Source: an uncultured bacterium (GTDB lineage: Bacteria; Bacillota_I; Bacilli_A; RFN20; CAG-826). Taken from it: a stretch of DNA of 64,000 nucleotides. This document shows, one piece after another, positions 32,343-42,603 of the stretch. The DNA lies in contig CASEVI010000001.1 in assembly GCA_949291375.1 (NCBI GenBank), positions 68,980 through 132,979 of the forward strand, in the 5' to 3' direction. The translations under genes and the position numbers were made by a program. The notes beneath the pieces are model-generated. The model made no database searches. It was not told the DNA's origin and saw only the letters and a list, made by a program, of their open reading frames with translations. Each line of letters starts with the position of its first letter. The first letter of the stretch is position 1.

Positions 32343-33314
32343 CTAATTTTGATTTTGACTTTCTTCAATCTTTTTCTTCCTTTTAAATTTAAACCAACTT
32401 GAAGGAAGTTGAGAAAAAATTACAGCGATAAACATGATTATCGAACCAAAAATTTCTTCAATAGACATATTTTGGTCAACATCACTAAATTTATAAAATT
32501 GATAAATAATTACTGCGCTTATTGCACTAAAAACGCTTTCTAAAGAAAGAATTAAACTGGCAACTGTTGGATTAACGCCCATTTTTTGTCCAACCATTTG
32601 TAAGGTATAAGCTATTCCACTAGAAACTATTCCAATAAATAAAATTGCAATTATCGATTCTAAATTGATCATATTAATAAAAGCTTGTGGATCAAATCCT
32701 AAAATGAGTCTAATTATAAAAGAAATTATTCCTTGAACTATAAGTTGTCCAAAAGAAAGATAATAAACATTTATTTTTGAAGAATAATGATCAACAAGTA
32801 AAATTTGAATAGCAAAAAATAATGTCCCTACTAAAATAAGTAAATCTCCACTAGAAAAAGAAAACCCACTATTAAAATCAAAAGATAAAAGTAATAAACC
32901 AACTAGAGCAATAAAAATTGAAATATAAACATTTAAACCACATTTTTTATGTAAAAATAAACCAAAAATAGGTACTAATATTATATATAAAGATGTTAAA
33001 AATCCAGTTTTTCCAGCACTTACTGTTTCTAAACCCATCTGTTGAAAAAGAGAAGCTAAACATAAAGCTATTCCACATAATAAAGGTGCAATAATTAAAT
33101 CTTTCTTTTTATATTTTATGTTATTTTTCTTATCTTTTTTTAAGAAAAATAACATAAAAGGAAGTATAGTTAATGCTCCTACTATACTCCTAAGATATAA
33201 AATAGTATAAGCATCCATATATTTAGATGCCATCGATTGAAATATAAAACTTATACCCCATAAAAAGGCTACAAGAAGTAAAACTAAACTACCTTTAAAT
33301 GCATTATTTTTCAC
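32343..33314 (-). CDS. DMT/EamA family transporter
   Basis: LWGISF, FQQMGL..VSAGKTGFLTSLY, GIAYTLQ..GQK..NPTVASLILSLESVF. Two EamA repeats. Confidence 0.92.
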   Translation of the reverse strand: MKNNAFKGSLVLLLVAFLWGISFIFQSMASKYMDAYTILYLRSIVGALTILPFMLFFLKKDKKNNIKYKKKDLIIAPLLCGIALCLASLFQQMGLETVSAGKTGFLTSLYIILVPIFGLFLHKKCGLNVYISIFIALVGLLLLSFDFNSGFSFSSGDLLILVGTLFFAIQILLVDHYSSKINVYYLSFGQLIVQGIISFIIRLILGFDPQAFINMINLESIIAILFIGIVSSGIAYTLQMVGQKMGVNPTVASLILSLESVFSAISAVIIYQFYKFSDVDQNMSIEEIFGSIIMFIAVIFSQLPSSWFKFKRKKKIEESQNQN

Positions 33315-33377
33315 GATTAAAGATTATATTATAAATAAAATTTCATTTAAAGATTGATATTTATACTAGTAAAATAA

Positions 33378-35783
33378 CTATTTATTTTTCTTTTTAGTAA
33401 AAGTCATTAAAAATTTAAATGTATTTTTTATATAGTTTTTATCATTTAATATATCAATAAATAAAGGAACATTGTCTTTATTGATTAATCCATTAGAAAA
33501 ATAAACCATTTGTCTAATTGGAGAATCAAAAACCAATTGTCTAACAAAGCTATCTTCTCGAATAATTTTTACACATAAAAATACATTTTTTAATAATTTT
33601 GCGCCTTTTGAACCATAAGTTAAGGCTAAATCTAAGGAAGAATTAATATCATGAACTATATTTTCTTTATCTATTTTTCTTAAAACTAATGATTTATCTA
33701 ATTCTAAAAATTCATTATCAGAAATATCTTTAACATCACATTTAAAATATTTTTGAGTCTTTAAATAATATGGAGAATCACTATAATCCATTCTTACTCC
33801 ATTTACCTTAACTCTAAATTTTTCGATAACATCAAGTGAATTTTTAGCAATTTCAATATTATATATTCCATCTTGAACTATATATTTTTTAACATTTATA
33901 TCATAATAAGCAAAAGAAGAATAAGGTAAAGTAAGCTCAACATGAGTCGAAGAATTTGCTTTAACTAAAACTTTATCAAATTTTTTTAATTCTCTTTTTG
34001 CATTAAAAACTACATCATTTGGTTTTCCAATGTAAAGTTGAACTACTTCTTTAGCATCTATCGATGAATTATTAACTAAATCAAAAGAAACTTTAATCTC
34101 TTCATTTTCGTTAGCAATTTCTTTATCAATATTAAAGTTTGAATAAGTAATGTTTGAATAAGAAAGGCCATAACCAAATGGGAATAACACTTCATCACTA
34201 TGAGAAGCATAATATCGATAACCTACAAAAATTGATTCTTTATGTGGATTATCAAAACGATTATTAGTTAAATAATTACTCATTACTGAAGAAGATAATT
34301 TTTTAAAGAATGTTTCAGCTAATCTTCCACTAGGATTAGCTTTTCCATATAAAATATTAAGTAAAGCTTCGTTTATCCCTTCTCCTCCATAATAACATTC
34401 AACCAAACCTCGAATATTATCGATAAAAGGAAGTTCAACAACAGACCCATTTTCTAAAACTACAATAATATTTGGATTAACTTTACTAATCTCATTAACA
34501 AGTTCAATTTGAGGAAGAGGTAAAGAAGCATCTTTTCTATCATATCCTTCACTTTCAATTTCATTAGGTAACCCTAAGAAAATAACAACTTTATTTTTAT
34601 TTTTTGCTAAATCTACAGCTTCTTTTATTAAAGGTTTACTATTTTGGATAGATAAAGAGTCATATCCTCTAGCATATTGATAGTGGGTTGAGAATTTTTC
34701 TAATTCTTTAATAAATCCAGGTAATCTATAAGGATTAACTTTTGAAGAACCTAAACCTTGATATCTAACACGATTAATAAATTCACCAACAAAAAGAATT
34801 GTGTCATTATCGTGGAGTGGTAATAATTTTCCATCATTTTTAAGTAAAACAATTGATTCTTCAGCAGCTTTGACACTAAATTCATGATCAGATAGATAAT
34901 CACAAACTTCATTCTCATTATTTTCAATAATTCGATATAAAGAAATACATCTTTCAACTGCTTTATTTATTTCTTCTTCACTTATATTTCCTTTTCTATA
35001 ATCTTCTAAAACTTTAAAATAATTAACATTATTTGAATTAGGCATTTCTAAATCTAAGCCATTTTTAATTGATAATGTTGCATCATTAATTGCTCCCCGA
35101 TCAGAAATACTTATTCCTTTAAACCCCCATTCGTTTCTTAATAATTCAGTTAAAAGATATTTATTTTCACAAGCATATACACCATTTATTAAATTATATG
35201 AAGGCATTATTGAAGCAGGTTCTGCTTCAATAATACATTTTTTAAATGCTTCTAAATATATTTCATGAAGTGCTCTTAAATCTACTACTTCATTAATTCT
35301 TGCTCGATCTTTTTCTTCACTATTTACTGCAAAATGTTTAACACATGCTCCAACATTATTAGATTCAATACCTTTAATATATGAGCTAGCTAATTCACCT
35401 GTTAAATAAGGATCTTCACTAAAATATTCAAAATTTCTTCCACATAGTGGATTTCTTTTAATATTAATTGCTGGTCCTAAAACAATTTGGATATTTTGAT
35501 TTCTTGCTTCTTTTCCAATTCTTCTTCCAATTTCAAATAATAAATTTTTATCAAATGAACATGCTGATAAAGATGCAGTAGGAAAACAAACTGCACTATA
35601 AGAAGAAAATGTTCCTTTTTCATTATTTTCACTTTCTTTTCTTAATCCATGAGGTCCATCACTCATTCGAATACTTTTTAAATTAATTTTTTCTAAAGGA
35701 ATAGTTGTCCAAGAATCTTTTCCTCTTAAAAAAGCTATTTTTTCTTCAATACTTAAATTTTTAATTTCTTCTTTAATATCCAT
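33378..35783 (-). CDS. Glycoside hydrolase family 3 (beta-glucosidase-like) with Fn3 domain
   Basis: MSDGPHGLR, LCGRNFEYFSEDP, VKHFAVN, ESEGYDR, FPFGYGLSY. Confidence 0.95.
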   Translation of the reverse strand: MDIKEEIKNLSIEEKIAFLRGKDSWTTIPLEKINLKSIRMSDGPHGLRKESENNEKGTFSSYSAVCFPTASLSACSFDKNLLFEIGRRIGKEARNQNIQIVLGPAINIKRNPLCGRNFEYFSEDPYLTGELASSYIKGIESNNVGACVKHFAVNSEEKDRARINEVVDLRALHEIYLEAFKKCIIEAEPASIMPSYNLINGVYACENKYLLTELLRNEWGFKGISISDRGAINDATLSIKNGLDLEMPNSNNVNYFKVLEDYRKGNISEEEINKAVERCISLYRIIENNENEVCDYLSDHEFSVKAAEESIVLLKNDGKLLPLHDNDTILFVGEFINRVRYQGLGSSKVNPYRLPGFIKELEKFSTHYQYARGYDSLSIQNSKPLIKEAVDLAKNKNKVVIFLGLPNEIESEGYDRKDASLPLPQIELVNEISKVNPNIIVVLENGSVVELPFIDNIRGLVECYYGGEGINEALLNILYGKANPSGRLAETFFKKLSSSVMSNYLTNNRFDNPHKESIFVGYRYYASHSDEVLFPFGYGLSYSNITYSNFNIDKEIANENEEIKVSFDLVNNSSIDAKEVVQLYIGKPNDVVFNAKRELKKFDKVLVKANSSTHVELTLPYSSFAYYDINVKKYIVQDGIYNIEIAKNSLDVIEKFRVKVNGVRMDYSDSPYYLKTQKYFKCDVKDISDNEFLELDKSLVLRKIDKENIVHDINSSLDLALTYGSKGAKLLKNVFLCVKIIREDSFVRQLVFDSPIRQMVYFSNGLINKDNVPLFIDILNDKNYIKNTFKFLMTFTKKKNK

Positions 35784-35874
35784 AAATTGTTAAACCTCAT
35801 TAATACGCTTTTTATTATATCAAAATATTTATTATTAATTATTTCTTTTATATAATTTTTAAGGGATTTTATAT

Positions 35875-36534
35875 ATGAAGATTATAGATAAAAGGACATT
35901 TAAAAAGATAAATCAATATAATTATTTTAAAACATTTGATGATCCAACATATGGATTTAATGTTAAAGTTGATGTTACTAACTTAGTTAAATATAAAAAT
36001 GAGAAAAAAATTTCATTTTTTATACCATTTTTATATTTAACTACACTTGCAATGAATAGTGTTTATGAATTTCATCTTCGTGAAATAAATAATGAAATAG
36101 TTTATTTCGATACAATTAATCCAACCTATACAGTAATTGGAAATAATGGGGTTTATTATAATACACGTAATGATTTAAGAGATTCATTTAAAGAATTTTA
36201 TGAAGAAACAAGAAAAAATATTGATTTAATTAAGAATAAAACCAATATTGATTTAGTTTATAATGACGAAGATTATGCCGTTTATTATATGACCTGCGTT
36301 CCTACGATTTCTATCTTAGGAATGAATCATCCGACTCCTTCGAAAAATTATACTTCTAGTAGTGTTCCTCGTGTTTTATGGGATAAATATTATTTAGATA
36401 AAAATGATAACCATTATTATTTAACACTGAATATTACTGTTTCACATTGTTTTATCGATGGTTATCCATTAAGTGCCGCATTTATTAAATTAAATGAAAT
36501 GTTAAATAATTTAGATAAATATTTAGATTTATAA
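35875..36534 (+). CDS. CatA-like O-acetyltransferase (chloramphenicol acetyltransferase fold)
   Basis: Size 219 aa, PRVLWDKY, catalytic region VSHCFIDGY (HxxxDG). Confidence 0.8.
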   Translation: MKIIDKRTFKKINQYNYFKTFDDPTYGFNVKVDVTNLVKYKNEKKISFFIPFLYLTTLAMNSVYEFHLREINNEIVYFDTINPTYTVIGNNGVYYNTRNDLRDSFKEFYEETRKNIDLIKNKTNIDLVYNDEDYAVYYMTCVPTISILGMNHPTPSKNYTSSSVPRVLWDKYYLDKNDNHYYLTLNITVSHCFIDGYPLSAAFIKLNEMLNNLDKYLDL

Positions 36535-36543
36535 AAAGTAAGT

Positions 36544-36579
36544 AAAAAGAGCCATATTTAGTAAAAAGTGGCTCTTTTT
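36544..36579. terminator. Intrinsic terminator after the CAT-like gene
   Basis: AAAAAGAGCCA / TGGCTCTTTTT inverted repeat. Confidence 0.75.
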
Positions 36580-36725
36580 ATTATAAAATTGATTAATTTT
36601 TCTTAAAAGTGAATATTATTTCTTATTGAAAGCATTCTTGTCTAGTGAACGTCGACGTAGGTTGCGGGTGGGAATAATTAAATTTATTCCCTTATAATAT
36701 GGCATTTTTTAAAATTTTATTTTAT

Positions 36726-37166
36726 CTATAAAATTGTCACGCTTCCATCGTCTTTTATTTCCAATTTGTCACCCGTTTTAACAGTATCTAAAAATTCTTT
36801 TCCTAATTTATCAATGCAAATAATAGGTGAATTTTGCCACACTTTAGCTAAAACAATTCCACTAGCTGCTAACGAATCTATTTCTTCACTAAAAAGGAAG
36901 GCAGCAGGATTTATACCCATATCACAAACTGTTTGAATTACTAACCCTCCAGTAGTTGAACCAATTGTAATAGGCAAACATAAAATTTTATTAGTAATAT
37001 CAACACCATATAAATCTTTATTATTTTGATCACTAACAATTACTTTTTTCTTTTTCATTAAAGCTGATTTTTGGAAAGAAGCAAGTGTATTAAATCCTTG
37101 ATGAGAAACAGCTGCTTCACCAGTAAAATTACCTTTAGCAATAACTCTTCCTTTAAATGTTTTCAT
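36726..37166 (-). CDS. Aconitase X swivel-domain subunit (DUF126)
   Basis: GEAAVS..GFN, ITNKILCLP..IGSTTG (catalytic Ser region), LASGIVLA, SVTI. Confidence 0.88.
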   Translation of the reverse strand: MKTFKGRVIAKGNFTGEAAVSHQGFNTLASFQKSALMKKKKVIVSDQNNKDLYGVDITNKILCLPITIGSTTGGLVIQTVCDMGINPAAFLFSEEIDSLAASGIVLAKVWQNSPIICIDKLGKEFLDTVKTGDKLEIKDDGSVTIL

Positions 37167-37178
37167 GTCTTCTTCCTC

Positions 37179-38468
37179 CTATTTAGTAATTAAGTCTAAA
37201 ATCTCATCATCTTTAAAATAACGAGCCATTGAATACGTTCTTAATTTATTCGAATTTGTTAAAATCGCTTTACCATGAACAAGCGGATTATTTGTGTACA
37301 TCAAAGGACAGATTGAAGAAAGTCTAACACCATAGTCATAGGCTTCTTTATACAAAGATTCATTTTCTTTAATAAATTTAGCTTTTACTTTTGGAGCGCT
37401 AGTTAAAATTACTTGACCATTTACTTTATTTTTAGAGTGTTCTTTTAATGATTTAACAATATTTTCACACCAAGATTTTAATTGATAGTAAGTTAAATGT
37501 GGGCATCCTATAAATGTTATTTCTGGATTAGCATCTTCCTTTTTCCACATATTTGGATAAGATTTATAAACTCTATCTAATTCAGTGTCATCGATAATAT
37601 ATTTTTTAGCATTAGCAATAACTAAATTTTCACCTTTTTCTTTAGCTTCAGGTGTTAAATTTTCAACATGGAATAAACCAACCGCTCCATTTGAAGCACT
37701 TGCTGCACCCATATCTTTTAAATAAGCTTCGTTTTCATGGTCAAGTTCGCTTCCTATAAATTTATCTAATCCTTTAATATAAGGGACTTCTTCCATTACT
37801 TTCATTCCAATAGCTGAACCTAAAATTTGAGCTTCAGGAACACTGCTTGTTTTAACTTCAACTACCCAAGTGGCTTTTCTATTTTCATCAAGTAATAAAC
37901 CAAATTCAGGTACATATCCAATGATTGAGCCAAATAAATCAAGCATTCCTGAATTTCTATTACAGCGAGCTCCTAAAACTGAGTTTGCAAAAACTACTGC
38001 ACTAGATTCAGCCCATGATAAAATATCTCCTTTTTTAGGTCTGTTGCCACATTCTTCTAAGTAACAAGTACAAGAAAAAGAATCTTTATCAACTAAGCCA
38101 GCTTTTAACATTTGTTCAGTATATTCTTCTTGTTTTCCATATAAAATTTTATTGAAAACAATTTTTTCTAAAAGATTGCACTTAACATTTTCATAATCTA
38201 AAGGTGCTGGATCACATGTAAATCCGCCTTCAGCTTTTAATCCTTCTTTATTAATTTCTTCCATTGTTTTAAATAACGGTCTTAATAATGGAATACCAAA
38301 AGAAGTAACAAGGTGCCCTTCTTCATGTGTTACTGGAATCATTCTCTTTGCACCGAAAATATCACCAAAAAGAACAAGTGTTTCCATCATTTTTCTTAAA
38401 GTATCACCCTTTTTACCTTCTAAAATGTCAATCTGTTCTTGAGTTAACTCCATTTTATAATCAATCAT
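37179..38468 (-). CDS. Aconitase X catalytic subunit (DUF521)
   Basis: SCTCY, WAESSAVVFANSVLGARCNR, GAASASNGAVGLFHV...TPEA, IGCPH, SICP. Confidence 0.92.
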   Translation of the reverse strand: MIDYKMELTQEQIDILEGKKGDTLRKMMETLVLFGDIFGAKRMIPVTHEEGHLVTSFGIPLLRPLFKTMEEINKEGLKAEGGFTCDPAPLDYENVKCNLLEKIVFNKILYGKQEEYTEQMLKAGLVDKDSFSCTCYLEECGNRPKKGDILSWAESSAVVFANSVLGARCNRNSGMLDLFGSIIGYVPEFGLLLDENRKATWVVEVKTSSVPEAQILGSAIGMKVMEEVPYIKGLDKFIGSELDHENEAYLKDMGAASASNGAVGLFHVENLTPEAKEKGENLVIANAKKYIIDDTELDRVYKSYPNMWKKEDANPEITFIGCPHLTYYQLKSWCENIVKSLKEHSKNKVNGQVILTSAPKVKAKFIKENESLYKEAYDYGVRLSSICPLMYTNNPLVHGKAILTNSNKLRTYSMARYFKDDEILDLITK

Positions 38469-38478
38469 AAATTTCTCC

Positions 38479-40536
38479 TTATAAATCCATTGCTACTTTA
38501 TAAGCACCCCAAATAACATTTCTTAAATTGCCAACTTCTTTTGCATCTCCTACTAAGTGAACGTGAGACGATTTTTTAGCAAGTGGGGCTGGATTATAAC
38601 CAATTGAACAGATGATTGTATCATAATCTAAAGCGACTTCATTACCATAAATATCTACACAAACCACAGCCTTATCTGTAATTTCTCTAACATTTGTATC
38701 TAAATGAACATCAGTATTATGAAGTTTAAAGAAATCTCTTAAATATGAAGAGTTAGCTAAACATAACCCTCTAACAGCCATCAAATCTTGCTTTATTTCA
38801 ACAATTGAAACTGTTTTTCCTTTTAAAAGTAAATCATAAGCAATTTCGCACCCTGTTAAACCGCCACCAATAATTACAACTTTGTCACCAACTTGTTCTT
38901 TATTATCTAGATAAGATAATGCATCGATACATTTCTCTGCACCTTTAATATTTAATTTTCTAGCTTTTGCACCATTAGCAACAATTATTTCATCTTCCTT
39001 TAATTCTTGAATATCATTAATAGGTGTATTTAACTTAACATTAACTTTGAGTTGTTCCATTTGCCTTATATACCAAGCAATTAATTTCTTGTCATTATCC
39101 TTAAAATCAAAATTAGAAGCTTCACAGAAAACGCCACCTAAGTGATCGCTTTTTTCATAAATTGTCACTTTGTGACCTCTTAATGTGGCAACTCTAGCTG
39201 CTTCCATTCCTCCAATTCCACCTCCAATAATGGCAATAGATTTTGGAGTTTTTGCCTGTTGAATTCGATAAGAGCTATTCATTGTTTCAGGATTTAAAGC
39301 ACATCTTGACATGTGTTGAACATCGCTAAAAGCTTGATCATTAGCAACACCTTTATAATGAGCCATATTAAAGCAACCATTATGGCAATGAATACATGGC
39401 ATAATATCCTCTAATCTATCTTCCATTACCTTAGTAACCCAAGCTGGATCAGTTAAAAATTGTCTTGCTACACCCATCGCATCAATTTTTCCTTCTTTGA
39501 TAGCCTCGCTAGCAACATCTAAAGTCATTTTCCCTGCACAAACTAAAGGAATTGTGACTGCTTTTTTAAGTTCAGCAACATCTTCTAAATTACAATTATT
39601 TGGCATATAGACAGGTGGATGAGCCCAATACCAGGCATCATAAGTACCATTATCACAATTTAACATATCATATCCTGCATCTTGAAGATATTTAGCGGCT
39701 AATAAAGACTCTTCTAAATCTCTACCGACTTCGTTATAGTTACTTCCTTCTTCAGGAAGTGCGCCATGATCAAATCCTTTTGTTTTTGAAATAACTGAAT
39801 ATCTTAAAGAAACAGGGAAATCTTTTCCACATTTATCTTTAATCGCATGAACTACTTCTACAGGAAAACGATATCTATTAACAAAACTTCCGCCATAATC
39901 GTCAGTTCTTTGATTAGTATATTTTAAGGTAAATTGATCCAACAAATATCCTTCATGAACTGCGTGAACTTCAACTCCATCTACACCAGCATCTTTAAGC
40001 ATTTTGGAAGTTAAAGCATAAGCTTCGATTATTTCTTTGATTTCTTTAACTGTTAATGCTCTACATTTAATAGATGGATCCCAACGTGAAGGAAGTTCGC
40101 TTGGAGAAGCACATAAATAAGATGCGTCAATAATAGGTTTAGCTAAAAATCTCAAGACTTTATTTTTAGCTAATATTTTTAAAGGTTCGGTAATTGCAAA
40201 GCTTCTACCGAATCCAGCAGTAAGTTGAACAAATAATTTTGCGCCTGTTTTATGGAATTCTTCCATATAAACCTTTAATTCATCAAACATCTTTTTATTT
40301 TTATAAAGCCAACGATTTAAAATAGTATCTTTTAAAGGAGCAATACCTGGAATGATTAATCCAACATTGTTTTTAGCTCTAGTTAAAAAGAAATTTGCGG
40401 CTTCTTTGTCAAAATGGTTTCTTTCCATCCAACCAAAAAGAGATGTTCCACCCATTGGACATAAAACTATTCTATTTTTAATAGTTACATTCCCAATATT
40501 CCAAGGTGTAAATAAAGTTTCATATTCTTTTTTCAT
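38479..40536 (-). CDS. NADH:flavin oxidoreductase, Old Yellow Enzyme / 2-enoate reductase type with Fe-S and FAD domains
   Basis: VEVHAVHEGYLLDQF, RTDDYGGS..NRYRF, CIHCHNGC...C, two GxGxxG motifs. Confidence 0.93.
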   Translation of the reverse strand: MKKEYETLFTPWNIGNVTIKNRIVLCPMGGTSLFGWMERNHFDKEAANFFLTRAKNNVGLIIPGIAPLKDTILNRWLYKNKKMFDELKVYMEEFHKTGAKLFVQLTAGFGRSFAITEPLKILAKNKVLRFLAKPIIDASYLCASPSELPSRWDPSIKCRALTVKEIKEIIEAYALTSKMLKDAGVDGVEVHAVHEGYLLDQFTLKYTNQRTDDYGGSFVNRYRFPVEVVHAIKDKCGKDFPVSLRYSVISKTKGFDHGALPEEGSNYNEVGRDLEESLLAAKYLQDAGYDMLNCDNGTYDAWYWAHPPVYMPNNCNLEDVAELKKAVTIPLVCAGKMTLDVASEAIKEGKIDAMGVARQFLTDPAWVTKVMEDRLEDIMPCIHCHNGCFNMAHYKGVANDQAFSDVQHMSRCALNPETMNSSYRIQQAKTPKSIAIIGGGIGGMEAARVATLRGHKVTIYEKSDHLGGVFCEASNFDFKDNDKKLIAWYIRQMEQLKVNVKLNTPINDIQELKEDEIIVANGAKARKLNIKGAEKCIDALSYLDNKEQVGDKVVIIGGGLTGCEIAYDLLLKGKTVSIVEIKQDLMAVRGLCLANSSYLRDFFKLHNTDVHLDTNVREITDKAVVCVDIYGNEVALDYDTIICSIGYNPAPLAKKSSHVHLVGDAKEVGNLRNVIWGAYKVAMDL

Positions 40537-40651
40537 TATCCTTTTCTCCCTAATAAGTTTATGAATTTATTAATATTATAAAATAAAAGTTAAAAAGAAT
40601 AATCACTAATCTAATTAAATATTATATTTCTTAAAAGATATAAAAAAATAA

Positions 40652-40685
40652 AGTCGAATGATTAACTGAACTTCATCATTCGACT
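40652..40685 (-). terminator. Terminator of rlmD-mazG-like operon
   Basis: AGTCGAATGAT / ATCATTCGACT hairpin with a T tract on the minus strand. Confidence 0.7.
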
Positions 40686-40818
40686 AAAGGAGAAAAATAT
40701 TATATGCAATATAGTGAAATAAAAATATTAATTTAATTAATAAATATAATAGAGAGGACTATATTGCTTATGAATTATTAATAATGTTAAGGCTAAAACA
40801 AATTTTTGACAAGAGATT

Positions 40819-41142
40819 TTATAATTTATCGTATTTAGTTGCTTTCCCATAACTTTTTTCAACAGGATATTTTTCTTCATTTTTCTTCATTTTTTTATTA
40901 ATAATTTCATCTAAATCTAAATTAAGCTTAAGTGCTAAATCAATTACATAAACACTTACATCAGCTAATTCATCTTTAACATCGTCAATATTAAAATTAT
41001 TTTCATCCCATTGAAAACATTCTAATAATTCATTAGCTTCAATTGATATTGATTTTGCTAAATTAGCCGGCGAATGAAATTGATCAAAATTTCGATCATC
41101 ACTAAATTTTTTTATTCTTTCAACAGTTTCTTTTTTAATCAT
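40819..41142 (-). CDS. MazG-like nucleotide pyrophosphohydrolase
   Basis: QFHSPANLAKSISIEANELLECFQW, DELADV, NEEKYP. Confidence 0.9.
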   Translation of the reverse strand: MIKKETVERIKKFSDDRNFDQFHSPANLAKSISIEANELLECFQWDENNFNIDDVKDELADVSVYVIDLALKLNLDLDEIINKKMKKNEEKYPVEKSYGKATKYDKL

Positions 41143-41265
41143 AATAATTTTCCCTTATTATATTTTTTAATTCTAAATATACGTATTATAAATTTTAAAT
41201 TTTAGGAAAATCGATTTGGGTAAAAAACAATTTTCGGTTTTCTTTTCGAAATCTTTAAAATTTAT

Positions 41266-42603
41266 TTATCTTTTTAATTCCAAATAAACTACAGTTTCCA
41301 CATGGAATGTTCTAGGGAACATATCTACAAAATCTATGCTTTCAATATTATAATTTTTCTTTAAAATTGATAAATCGCGAGCAAGTGTTCCAACATCGCA
41401 AGAAATATAAACAATTTTTTTAGGATGAGAATTCATAATCCCTTTTAAAAATTTTGGGTCTAATCCTTTTCTTGGTGGATCAACAAAGACACAATCATAA
41501 GCCTTTTTTAATATTACATCTTTTGTATCACTAACAATAAATTTAGCATTTTTAATATTATTTAATTTTGCATTTTGATTAGCATCTTCAATCGCTTCTT
41601 TAACTATTTCAACACCTAAAACGTTTTTAACATATTTTGATACTATTAAACCAATCGTTCCAATTCCACAATATGCGTCCAAAATTTCATCTTCTTTTGT
41701 TAAATGAGCTTTAGAAATTGCTAATGAATAAAGTTTTTCACATTGATCATGATTTATTTGATAAAAAGATTTAGAAGAAATTTTAAAATTTACTCCTAAA
41801 AGAGAATCAAAAATAAACCCTCTCCCATAAGCAACTTCTTCTTTTTCTCCTAAAATAACATTAGTTCTTCTTTCATTATAATTATAAATAACAGTTGTAA
41901 TTTCTGGATTTAATTTTAATAATTCTTTAACAAAAACGCCTTTATTTTTAAATTGTTTTTCTTTTGTAACTAAAACAACCATTATTTCTTTACTTACTTT
42001 ACCAACTCTTATTAAAACATGCCTTAAAATACCTTCATCTTTATCTTCATCATAAGCACTTATTTTCATTGAAAGCATTAAATCTTTAATATTTTTTAAT
42101 ATAGAAACGTGTTCTTTACTTTCAATAACACATTCAGAAATTGGAACAATATCATGACTTTTAAAACGATAAAAACCATAAACTAACCTTTTTTGTTTAT
42201 CATAGCCAAAAGGAACTTGGATTTTATTGCGATAATAATATGGTTCTTCCATTCCAATGATTGAAGGATTTTTAACATCTATTTTAGCAATAGATTTTAA
42301 AGTATTTATAGCAACTTTTCTTTTATATTCTAATTCTTTTTCATATAAAAGATTTTGAAAAGAACATCCTCCACAACTAGTTGCACATGGACATTTAGGA
42401 TTTATTCTATAAGGAGATAATTTAGTTAGTTTTTTAATTTTACCAATATCATAATCTTTTTTATGATATAAAACTTCTATTTCAGCTTCTTCATCAATTA
42501 AAAGAGAAGGAACAAAATAAGTCCTTTTATTTTTATCTTTAGCTAATCCTTGACCATCAAAAGTAAAGTCGACACATTTAACATTTATAATTTCGTTTTT
42601 CAT
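41266..42603 (-). CDS. rlmD: 23S rRNA (uracil1939-C5)-methyltransferase
   Basis: TRAM domain, CGGCSFQ, YRNK, SFYQIN, DAYCGIGTIG, VDPPRKG, ISCD..TLARD, DMFPRTFHVE. Confidence 0.95.
   Translation of the reverse strand: MKNEIINVKCVDFTFDGQGLAKDKNKRTYFVPSLLIDEEAEIEVLYHKKDYDIGKIKKLTKLSPYRINPKCPCATSCGGCSFQNLLYEKELEYKRKVAINTLKSIAKIDVKNPSIIGMEEPYYYRNKIQVPFGYDKQKRLVYGFYRFKSHDIVPISECVIESKEHVSILKNIKDLMLSMKISAYDEDKDEGILRHVLIRVGKVSKEIMVVLVTKEKQFKNKGVFVKELLKLNPEITTVIYNYNERRTNVILGEKEEVAYGRGFIFDSLLGVNFKISSKSFYQINHDQCEKLYSLAISKAHLTKEDEILDAYCGIGTIGLIVSKYVKNVLGVEIVKEAIEDANQNAKLNNIKNAKFIVSDTKDVILKKAYDCVFVDPPRKGLDPKFLKGIMNSHPKKIVYISCDVGTLARDLSILKKNYNIESIDFVDMFPRTFHVETVVYLELKR

Follow-up and report, generated by a model that had tools for sequence, protein, structure and literature searches.

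Only two AcnX activities are known, dehydration of cis-3-hydroxy-L-proline (C3LHyp; type I) and of mevalonate 5-phosphate (type IIb), and in each case the characterised enzyme removes water from the C2-C3 bond of a free 3-hydroxy acid (PMC8184944). The bacterial subclasses IIc-IIf carry the landmark residues of neither (PMC8184944), and most Fe-S flavoenzymes of the gut are of unknown function (PMC11574389, PMC7371122). Members of both families stand together in the window studied here, the whole 64,000-nucleotide stretch of contig CASEVI010000001.1. Three open reading frames (ORFs) lie in tandem on the minus strand, with gaps of 10 bp between the gene for the flavoenzyme, which resembles old yellow enzyme (OYE), and acnXL, and of 12 bp between acnXL and acnXS:

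40536..38479, minus strand: Fe-S flavoenzyme (type A, OYE-like), 685 aa
38468..37179, minus strand: AcnX large subunit (DUF521), 429 aa
37166..36726, minus strand: AcnX small (swivel) subunit (DUF126), 146 aa

The host genome is small (1.29 Mb, 26% GC, 12 contigs, 96.7% complete) and its closest public relatives are gut metagenome-assembled genomes (MAGs) labelled uncultured Bacilli.

We propose, with a probability of roughly 0.6, that the trio is a self-contained, coenzyme A (CoA)-independent module which dehydrates and then reduces a free 3-hydroxy-carboxylic acid. The proposal draws on the arrangement of the genes, on cofactor-binding and catalytic residues that are conserved, on evidence that excludes both known AcnX functions, and on the fact that AcnX co-occurs near-obligately with a reductase of this superfamily. 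Nearly all carriers of AcnX have an OYE-type Fe-S flavoenzyme as well, and the simplest way to account for this is a dehydration that precedes an ene-reduction. The earlier note on this DNA had already suggested a dehydratase followed by an ene-reductase; the coupling of the two enzymes holds, whilst the order and direction of the steps, the substrate class and a physiological role as electron sink are what we infer from it.

In a scan of one genome per species, close relatives of the large subunit turned up in at least 595 species, and the best 80 loci were examined. These come from MAGs of gut or digester origin, assigned to Bacilli, Christensenellales, Acutalibacteraceae, Oscillospiraceae and other groups, and the small subunit adjoins the large subunit in every one. 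Orthologues of the window flavoenzyme (type A, 57-73% identity) are adjacent to acnX in about 24 of the 80, lying upstream, downstream, divergent or 3.5 kb off. A paralogue of about 757 aa (type B, roughly 29-33% identical to the window flavoenzyme) is adjacent in 12 more, and adjacency of either type amounts to roughly 45% of the loci. About half of the 80 have no OYE gene next to acnX, as would be expected if two unrelated enzymes merely happened to be neighbours in the host genome. The genome-wide counts effectively refute this. Among 151 genomes of the window's order, AcnX is found in 38 and type A (at least 58% identity) in 44, with both in 36 (Fisher p = 1.4e-24); AcnX and type A sit on different contigs or far apart in nine of these co-carriers. 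The two genomes with AcnX alone (G088 and G021) have type B (about 757 aa, 33-35% identical) directly beside acnX. Beyond adjacency, 33 of the 36 genomes without a flavoenzyme near acnX, mostly Clostridia, encode type A elsewhere (59-69% identity), as do all four further Bacilli carriers of the window AcnX clade. A genome with an AcnX only 48% identical to the window's has no type A. The pairing that the earlier note reported at this one locus is thus conserved (36/38 in the order, 33/36 where unlinked, 4/4 in the further carriers). Co-occurrence of 36/38, 33/36, 12/12 and 4/4, together with linkage that is regained in varied gene orders, makes chance adjacency a negligible explanation.

The exchange of one reductase for another is itself informative. 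Type A is absent from nine of the 12 genomes with an adjacent type B, and type-B-linked AcnX proteins are scattered over the AcnX tree, where the starred branches force at least five changes. AcnX therefore retains a reductase of this superfamily despite gene exchange. AcnX is patchily distributed: 25% of the genomes of the order have it, as do three of the five sampled from the window's genus. Its locus is mobile, since seven genomes of the same genus are missing the whole block after rlmD, and two of these (G088 and G133) carry acnX elsewhere. Patchy spread and a moving locus have the look of an accessory function.

Clustering of every ORF in the neighbourhood of acnX (81 loci) and of 20 unlinked type-A genes brought out no recurrent partner other than the OYE; none of the transporters, CoA ligases or transferases, or regulator families recurs. 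Since no other neighbour is conserved, the module appears complete with three genes. The remaining neighbours are housekeeping or sporadic (RNase HII, MetH, SpoU, Band 7, PALP, GpmA, DUF5696, XRE, HydABC-like), with XRE-type regulators flanking four loci. About 100 loci scanned for T-box motifs gave no hit upstream of the module, no conserved k-mers were detected upstream of the OYE gene or acnX, and positions 36400-41300 of the window hold no relevant Rfam riboswitch, leader or tail family at permissive E-values.

Two of the sporadic neighbourhoods have features of their own. In two Bacilli MAGs (L022/L024:7012-9410 onward) NuoE-like and NuoF-like genes come next after the acnX pair in the same orientation, together with others that resemble an electron-bifurcating hydrogenase (HydABC), and the type-A reductase is divergent upstream of the pair. 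At L127:1782-9817 a 39%-identical AcnX pair comes right after genes for a LarC-like Ni_insertion protein, a LarB-like AIRC protein, DUF362 and an ArsP permease. The LarC-like and LarB-like genes belong to nickel-pincer cofactor synthesis, and in the window a LarA-type cluster lies some 8 kb away from the trio; the proximity of AcnX to nickel-pincer genes is probably a coincidence.

Several observations weigh against the proposed module. Eight of the 44 type-A genomes of the order have no AcnX; the reductase may have a separate role of its own, or those eight assemblies may be incomplete. Three of the 36 AcnX genomes without a nearby flavoenzyme have no type-A reductase. Co-occurrence indicates a functional link and says nothing of the order of steps. 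Across the 81 acnX and 20 type-A loci, and in the Rfam and T-box scans, there is no conserved transporter, regulator or riboswitch that would name the substrate.

The large subunit matches PF04412 (AcnX) with 299.9 bits (cut-off 31.5) and the small subunit PF01989 (AcnX_swivel_put) with 45.5 bits (cut-off 27). Both models thus score above gathering and the genes are 12 bp apart, which places the pair amongst the two-subunit type II AcnX enzymes. The best structural match of the large subunit is the T. kodakarensis (Tk) enzyme (7cnr_A, 3.2e-42), the type I enzyme of A. tumefaciens (At) following at about 1e-19; the small subunit matches 2hi6 and 7cnr_B. Active-site residues were assigned by sequence alignment to two crystal structures. 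C133, C322 and C387 align with the type II cluster ligands C110, C283 and C342 of Tk, and E154-S155-S156, K408 and Y412 with its Glu129-Ser130-Ser131, Lys361 and Tyr365; all are invariant in the window protein and 11 homologues. In the small subunit the catalytic serine loop is G69-S70-T71-T72-G73-G74, and at least 95% of the sequences retain GSTTGG when the window protein and 76 family members are compared. S70(S), aligned with Tk Ser62(S) and At Ser70, occupies the position proposed to act as general base (this and the other residue roles are from PMC8184944). With cluster ligands and catalytic residues conserved, AcnX should therefore be an active Fe-S dehydratase acting across C2-C3 of a 3-hydroxy acid. 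We predict that the large subunit is a [4Fe-4S] 3-hydroxy-acid dehydratase of an uncharacterised bacterial type II subclass.

The substrate pocket differs from those of both solved enzymes. V54 takes the place of At Asp203, suggesting a substrate without an α-amino group, and D86 for Tk Asn79 with F57 for Tk Ser50 would suit one without a phosphate tail. The large subunit has gained an insertion of about 20 residues with invariant Y92, K96, E101, F105, Y110 and Y116. Judged from V54, F57, D86 and the invariant aromatic residues of the insertion (Y92/F105/Y110/Y116), the tail of the substrate is probably hydrophobic or cationic.

The flavoenzyme has matches to Oxidored_FMN (PF00724, 1.5e-51) and Pyr_redox_2 (PF07992, 2.9e-33), and consists, in order, of an OYE-type flavin mononucleotide (FMN) barrel, a [4Fe-4S] linker and a domain for flavin adenine dinucleotide (FAD) and NAD(P)H. 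This is the architecture of the Fe-S flavoenzyme superfamily (FadH / 2-enoate reductase type), and its best structural matches are 2-naphthoyl-CoA reductase (6qkg, 3e-55) and FadH (1ps9, 3e-50). The motif HAVHEGY occupies residues 191-197 (H191/H194/Y197), the CxxCxxxC...C motif is formed by C381/C384/C388/C412, and the GxGxxG motifs are GGGIGG at 438 and GGGLTG at 557. When the window protein is taken together with 45 orthologues, at least 97% of the sequences retain the triad, the four cysteines and both glycine motifs. NCBIfam models of the described subfamilies fall far under their cut-offs (BilR long form, 346 against 750; BaiCD, 330 against 825; the mycofactocin OYE model likewise). The protein is a predicted 2-enoate (ene-) reductase.

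In the proposed reaction, the C1 carboxylate of the substrate would be bound in the AcnX heterodimer by T71(S), S155(L), K408(L) and Y412(L). The C3 hydroxyl would sit on the unique iron of the [4Fe-4S] cluster held by C133, C322 and C387, the cluster serving as Lewis acid. The S70(S) alkoxide could then take the C2 proton and water would leave, giving the 2-enoate. In the flavoenzyme, two electrons would pass from NAD(P)H to FAD, to the [4Fe-4S] cluster and to FMN; H191/H194 would anchor and polarise the enoate carboxylate, hydride would be delivered to C-β, and Y197 would protonate C-α to yield the saturated acid. The net reaction would be R-CH(OH)-CH2-COO- + NADH + H+ -> R-CH2-CH2-COO- + NAD+ + H2O. 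Its role may be that of an accessory NADH sink, or of a salvage reaction, in gut fermenters with small genomes.

The same enzymes could in theory work in the opposite direction, with the flavoenzyme desaturating a saturated acid and AcnX hydrating the enoate to a 3-hydroxy acid, as a CoA-free entry resembling β-oxidation. AcnX reactions are reversible in principle, BaiCD-type enzymes are able to run oxidatively (PMC11574389), and the 3-hydroxyacyl dehydrogenase with BKACE or acetoacetate decarboxylase (ADC) genes found beside AcnX in sister clades would consume a 3-hydroxy acid. Those sister clusters, however, are without an OYE gene, and the window clade has no conserved dehydrogenase. Desaturation of a saturated carboxylate driven by NAD+ is, as a matter of general biochemistry, strongly uphill, and the carriers appear to be strictly fermentative, with genomes of about 1 Mb in which a high-potential acceptor is not evident. 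We regard this direction as unlikely.

Somewhat more room must be left for a single pathway in which the two enzymes do not act consecutively, although we still consider it doubtful. The pathway might, for instance, open with reduction of a dienoate, keto or imine group by the flavoenzyme, while AcnX acts on a different intermediate; alternatively, an additional unlinked enzyme might catalyse a step between the two. Co-occurrence gives no order, and insertions of genes of the alkaline phosphatase superfamily (L009/L014 and L069) hint at extra steps in some lineages. Against this, nothing else is conserved in most genomes, and the reactions typical of the two families join directly with no extra step needed. 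The insertions deserve description in their own right: two mutually unrelated genes of PF01663 have entered independently between the OYE gene and acnXL, in L009/L014 (L014:4911-6026) and in L069 (5158-6225), one beside a type-B and one beside a type-A reductase. In those lineages the substrate may be supplied as a phospho- or sulfo-ester.

Neither known AcnX function fits the proposed module's dehydratase. Dehydration of cis-3-hydroxy-L-proline is the sole described bacterial AcnX activity (PMC5144071, PMC8184944), and T72(S) equals Thr72 of the At enzyme. Of the four type I landmarks this is the one kept; Trp35, Asp203 and Ile206 correspond to L28(S), V54 and F57. The NCBIfam equivalog model for C3LHyp dehydratase (NF051439) gives 139 bits against a cut-off of 700, and the cysteine pattern is that of the type II [4Fe-4S] cluster, not the C273/C508/C510 of At. 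The proline racemase family (PF05544) is absent from the host genome and 20 relatives (21 genomes), and the window AcnX falls in the other half of the AcnX tree from At AcnX. A type I function is very unlikely.

Mevalonate 5-phosphate dehydration in a modified mevalonate pathway (type IIb) would agree with TkAcnX being the nearest solved structure (3e-42) and with the three-cysteine pattern the two have in common. The residues that hold the phosphate have changed: the Tk ligand Asn79 is D86, and its Gly48-Val49-Ser50 phosphate loop is T55-S56-F57, with Phe57 in place of Ser50. 3-Hydroxy-3-methylglutaryl-CoA reductase (PF00368) is missing from all 21 genomes, the model giving matches in control genomes. 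The clade lies outside the archaeal IIb group in a quick tree, and a patchy accessory spread over 25% of the order is ill-suited to an essential isoprenoid step. We consider this function highly improbable. Both roles were rejected on residues, NCBIfam score, tree and missing pathway genes.

The tree comprised 57 large subunits and came from a quick maximum-likelihood search, its deep branching being provisional. The window clade lies in the bacterial half (SH-aLRT 92), and Tk (IIb) and At (I) are both in the other half. The comparison with characterised AcnX types suggested in the earlier note thus sets the clade outside types I and IIb, and its residues fit the description of types IIc-IIf, which have no landmark residues (PMC8184944). 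The same note had seen no proline racemase or mevalonate pathway genes near the trio, an absence that now extends to the whole genome for PF05544 and PF00368. Its claim of a new AcnX function is strengthened in that neither known activity agrees with residues, models, tree and genome content; the hydroxy-acid class of the substrate remains at the level of inference.

Sister clades, whose representatives are 40-45% identical to the window AcnX, offer a wider view of the chemistry. The P0128 operon encodes, in order, a pyrrolysine-type dimethylamine methyltransferase, an OYE Fe-S flavoenzyme (36% identical to the window's), AcnX L and AcnX S; sigma-54 activators and four MttB-family genes lie around it. 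On the JGI metagenome contig L104/L110 (L110:12110-17307), in an apparent operon with a 45%-identical AcnX and an OYE Fe-S flavoenzyme, the pyrrolysine-interrupted dimethylamine methyltransferase has an amber TAG between pieces of 348 and 104 aa. Two sigma-54 activators and four MttB-family genes surround this operon, and two of the four are also split at an amber codon; the operon looks like an undescribed methylated-amine hydroxy-acid pathway. P0136, a fused L+S AcnX, is the well-supported sister of P0128, and its neighbours are an AraC regulator, a gene of the 3-hydroxyacyl-dehydrogenase family, an amino-acid permease and a divergent BKACE gene. At L114/L115:4710-11878 the fused AcnX of 603 aa has the subunit order reversed relative to type I fusions. 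Around it lie an AraC regulator, a 3-hydroxyacyl-dehydrogenase-family gene, an APC permease, a serine hydrolase, SnoaL and a divergent BKACE gene, a layout like that of cdh-type carnitine clusters, with all curated models below cut-off. P0135 sits amongst 3HCDH, SDR and three acetoacetate-decarboxylase-family genes, and P0133 belongs to a cluster for aerobic aromatic cleavage that also has MFS transporters. What these contexts have in common is a free β-hydroxy acid that is dehydrated and reduced, or oxidised to a β-keto acid and cleaved, which supports the general chemistry.

These neighbourhoods raise quaternary-amine hydroxy acids, carnitine among them, as candidate substrates. The trio would then be a CoA-independent counterpart of Cai, with AcnX converting L-carnitine or a related cationic β-hydroxy acid to crotonobetaine and the flavoenzyme reducing this to γ-butyrobetaine. 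Hints in this direction are the change of the phosphate-ligand Asn to Asp86, the invariant aromatic-rich loops in both enzymes, the co-transcription of a sister AcnX-OYE operon with a pyrrolysine-type dimethylamine methyltransferase in an MttB island, and the fused sister AcnX in a cdh-like cluster (3HCDH, BKACE, permease). Other findings run counter to it. BCCT transporters occur in none of the 151 genomes of the order, OpuAC-type binding proteins occur in just four of the 151, all AcnX-negative, and no MttB/MtbB homologue was found in the host genome or at any of 100 loci. Within the pocket insertion K96 does not vary, the sister clades reach only about 45% identity, the pocket residues differ from those of P0128, and the carriers are abundant in herbivores. 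For the window clade the lead is weak, gained no support when tested, and is in our estimate quite improbable. If true, it would place the first step of gut conversion of carnitine to trimethylamine in hundreds of uncultured Firmicutes, beyond the cai-bearing Enterobacteriaceae.

The trio is its own transcription unit, flanked as it is by the terminator of a MazG-like gene and by a bidirectional terminator:

40642..40683, minus strand: intrinsic terminator of the upstream MazG-like gene, stem GTCGAATGAT...ATCATTCGAC and T-run
36543..36579, both strands: bidirectional intrinsic terminator of the trio (minus) and the convergent CAT-like gene (plus), AAAAAGAGCCAC...GUGGCUCUUUUU, 12-bp stem

The MazG-like gene's terminator sets the 5' boundary, and the promoter of the trio must fall between the 40642..40683 element and 40537. 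At both downstream genes the Shine-Dalgarno sequence overlaps the preceding stop codon (TAAGGAG..ATG and TAGGAGG..ATG). The three-gene operon of the earlier note, with its 10- and 12-bp gaps, is borne out by coordinates, Shine-Dalgarno sites and flanking terminators. The 191-nt region that holds the bidirectional terminator folds at -33.9 kcal/mol (z = -5.2). A GC-richer intergenic stretch 3' of acnXS (36603-36710) has an 8-bp minus-strand hairpin, GGGAAUAA...UUAUUCCC, without a T-run, followed by ACGTCGACGT, and no Rfam match. The real terminator of the trio is the 12-bp stem at 36579..36543, not this hairpin.

Further downstream, the genes for GH3 and EamA lie beyond an opposite-strand gene and the terminator, outside the trio's unit. 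The genes for the CAT-like acetyltransferase, GH3 glycosidase and EamA transporter (window 32343-36534) keep their order beside the trio only in the closest relatives (G008, G006/L001 and L003), and an EamA-family gene (32% identity) stands two genes downstream of acnXS in the Christensenellaceae locus L030. A link to plant glycosides through GH3, EamA and CAT was rejected, the synteny being confined to the closest relatives and seven same-genus genomes being without the block. The transformation of plant compounds or xenobiotics, offered earlier as a possible role, finds no backing here: these genes accompany the trio only in very close relatives, behind the opposite-strand gene and terminator, and nothing points to hydroxycinnamates or flavonoids.

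In the literature available in full text, including a gene-cluster survey of Fe-S flavoenzymes and one supplement file, no paper links AcnX/DUF521 to an ene-reductase, and the pairing is not described in work on tricarballylate or aconitate reduction, gut Fe-S flavoenzymes or crotonobetaine. The AcnX-ene-reductase module is probably an undescribed two-step removal of a hydroxyl from an organic acid. One AcnX clade and one flavoenzyme clade co-occur near-obligately in anaerobes of guts and digesters, several hundred species at the least; some of these have genomes of about 1 Mb and very few accessory enzymes. If the proposal is true, it would add a third AcnX reaction and a thioester-free route to β-hydroxyl removal and NADH disposal. 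It would also give a function to a widespread clade of gut flavoenzymes and indicate a specific microbial metabolite conversion in animal guts.

Of the described AcnX enzymes, type IIb (T. kodakarensis TK1249/TK1248, PDB 7cnr/7cns; A. pernix PMDh) shares with the window AcnX the two-subunit layout, the three cysteine ligands ([4Fe-4S]/[3Fe-4S]), the Glu-Ser-Ser and Lys...Tyr substrate binders and the small-subunit serine. The chemistry is expected to be alike, a 3-hydroxy acid giving a trans-2-enoate. Identity is only about 35%, however, with Asn79 replaced by Asp86, Ser50 by Phe57 and an insertion of about 20 residues added. Unlike archaeal type IIb, the window enzyme is bacterial and accessory, belongs to the other major branch, has no mevalonate pathway in its genome and is accompanied by an ene-reductase. 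With type I AcnX it has in common the superfamily, the logic of C2-C3 dehydration, the catalytic serine and the small-subunit Thr72. Type I binds a [2Fe-2S] cluster through a different set of cysteines, whereas the window AcnX has the type II set, and the type I residues for binding the amino group and ring are missing from it, as is the hydroxyproline gene context.

The window flavoenzyme has the three-module architecture of clostridial 2-enoate reductases, FadH, BaiCD, BaiH, BilR and DZNR, and its His-x-x-His...Tyr triad is the one usually seen where an OYE polarises a carbonyl or carboxylate. It falls in no curated subfamily of the FadH/BaiCD/BaiH/BilR/DZNR superfamily and, unlike the FadH-type members, has a 12-residue insertion within the Fe-S motif. 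An invariant, clade-specific loop, D295-N-G-T-Y-D-A-W-Y-W-A-H-P-P308, marks type A and is absent from FadH and NCR; other AcnX-linked OYEs have a counterpart of it "in spirit".

At the level of the pathway, the nearest parallels are Cai, in which CaiB-CaiD-CaiA of E. coli and Proteus take L-carnitine through crotonobetaine to γ-butyrobetaine, and the bai and Fld pathways. In all three, dehydration to an α,β-unsaturated acid derivative is followed by reduction as an anaerobic electron sink, a logic like that proposed for the trio. The analogy with bai and phenyllactate metabolism drawn in the earlier note holds for this dehydrate-then-reduce logic and is otherwise loose: those pathways depend on CoA esters or 3-oxo activation, and no CoA-handling partner is found here. 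Cai, bai and Fld act on CoA thioesters or 3-oxo-activated steroids, whereas the trio has no linked CoA ligase or transferase. They employ crotonase, BaiE or radical dehydratases with acyl-CoA-dehydrogenase-type or Bai reductases; the dehydratase of the trio is an aconitase-type Fe-S enzyme which, by homology, would act on the free acid.

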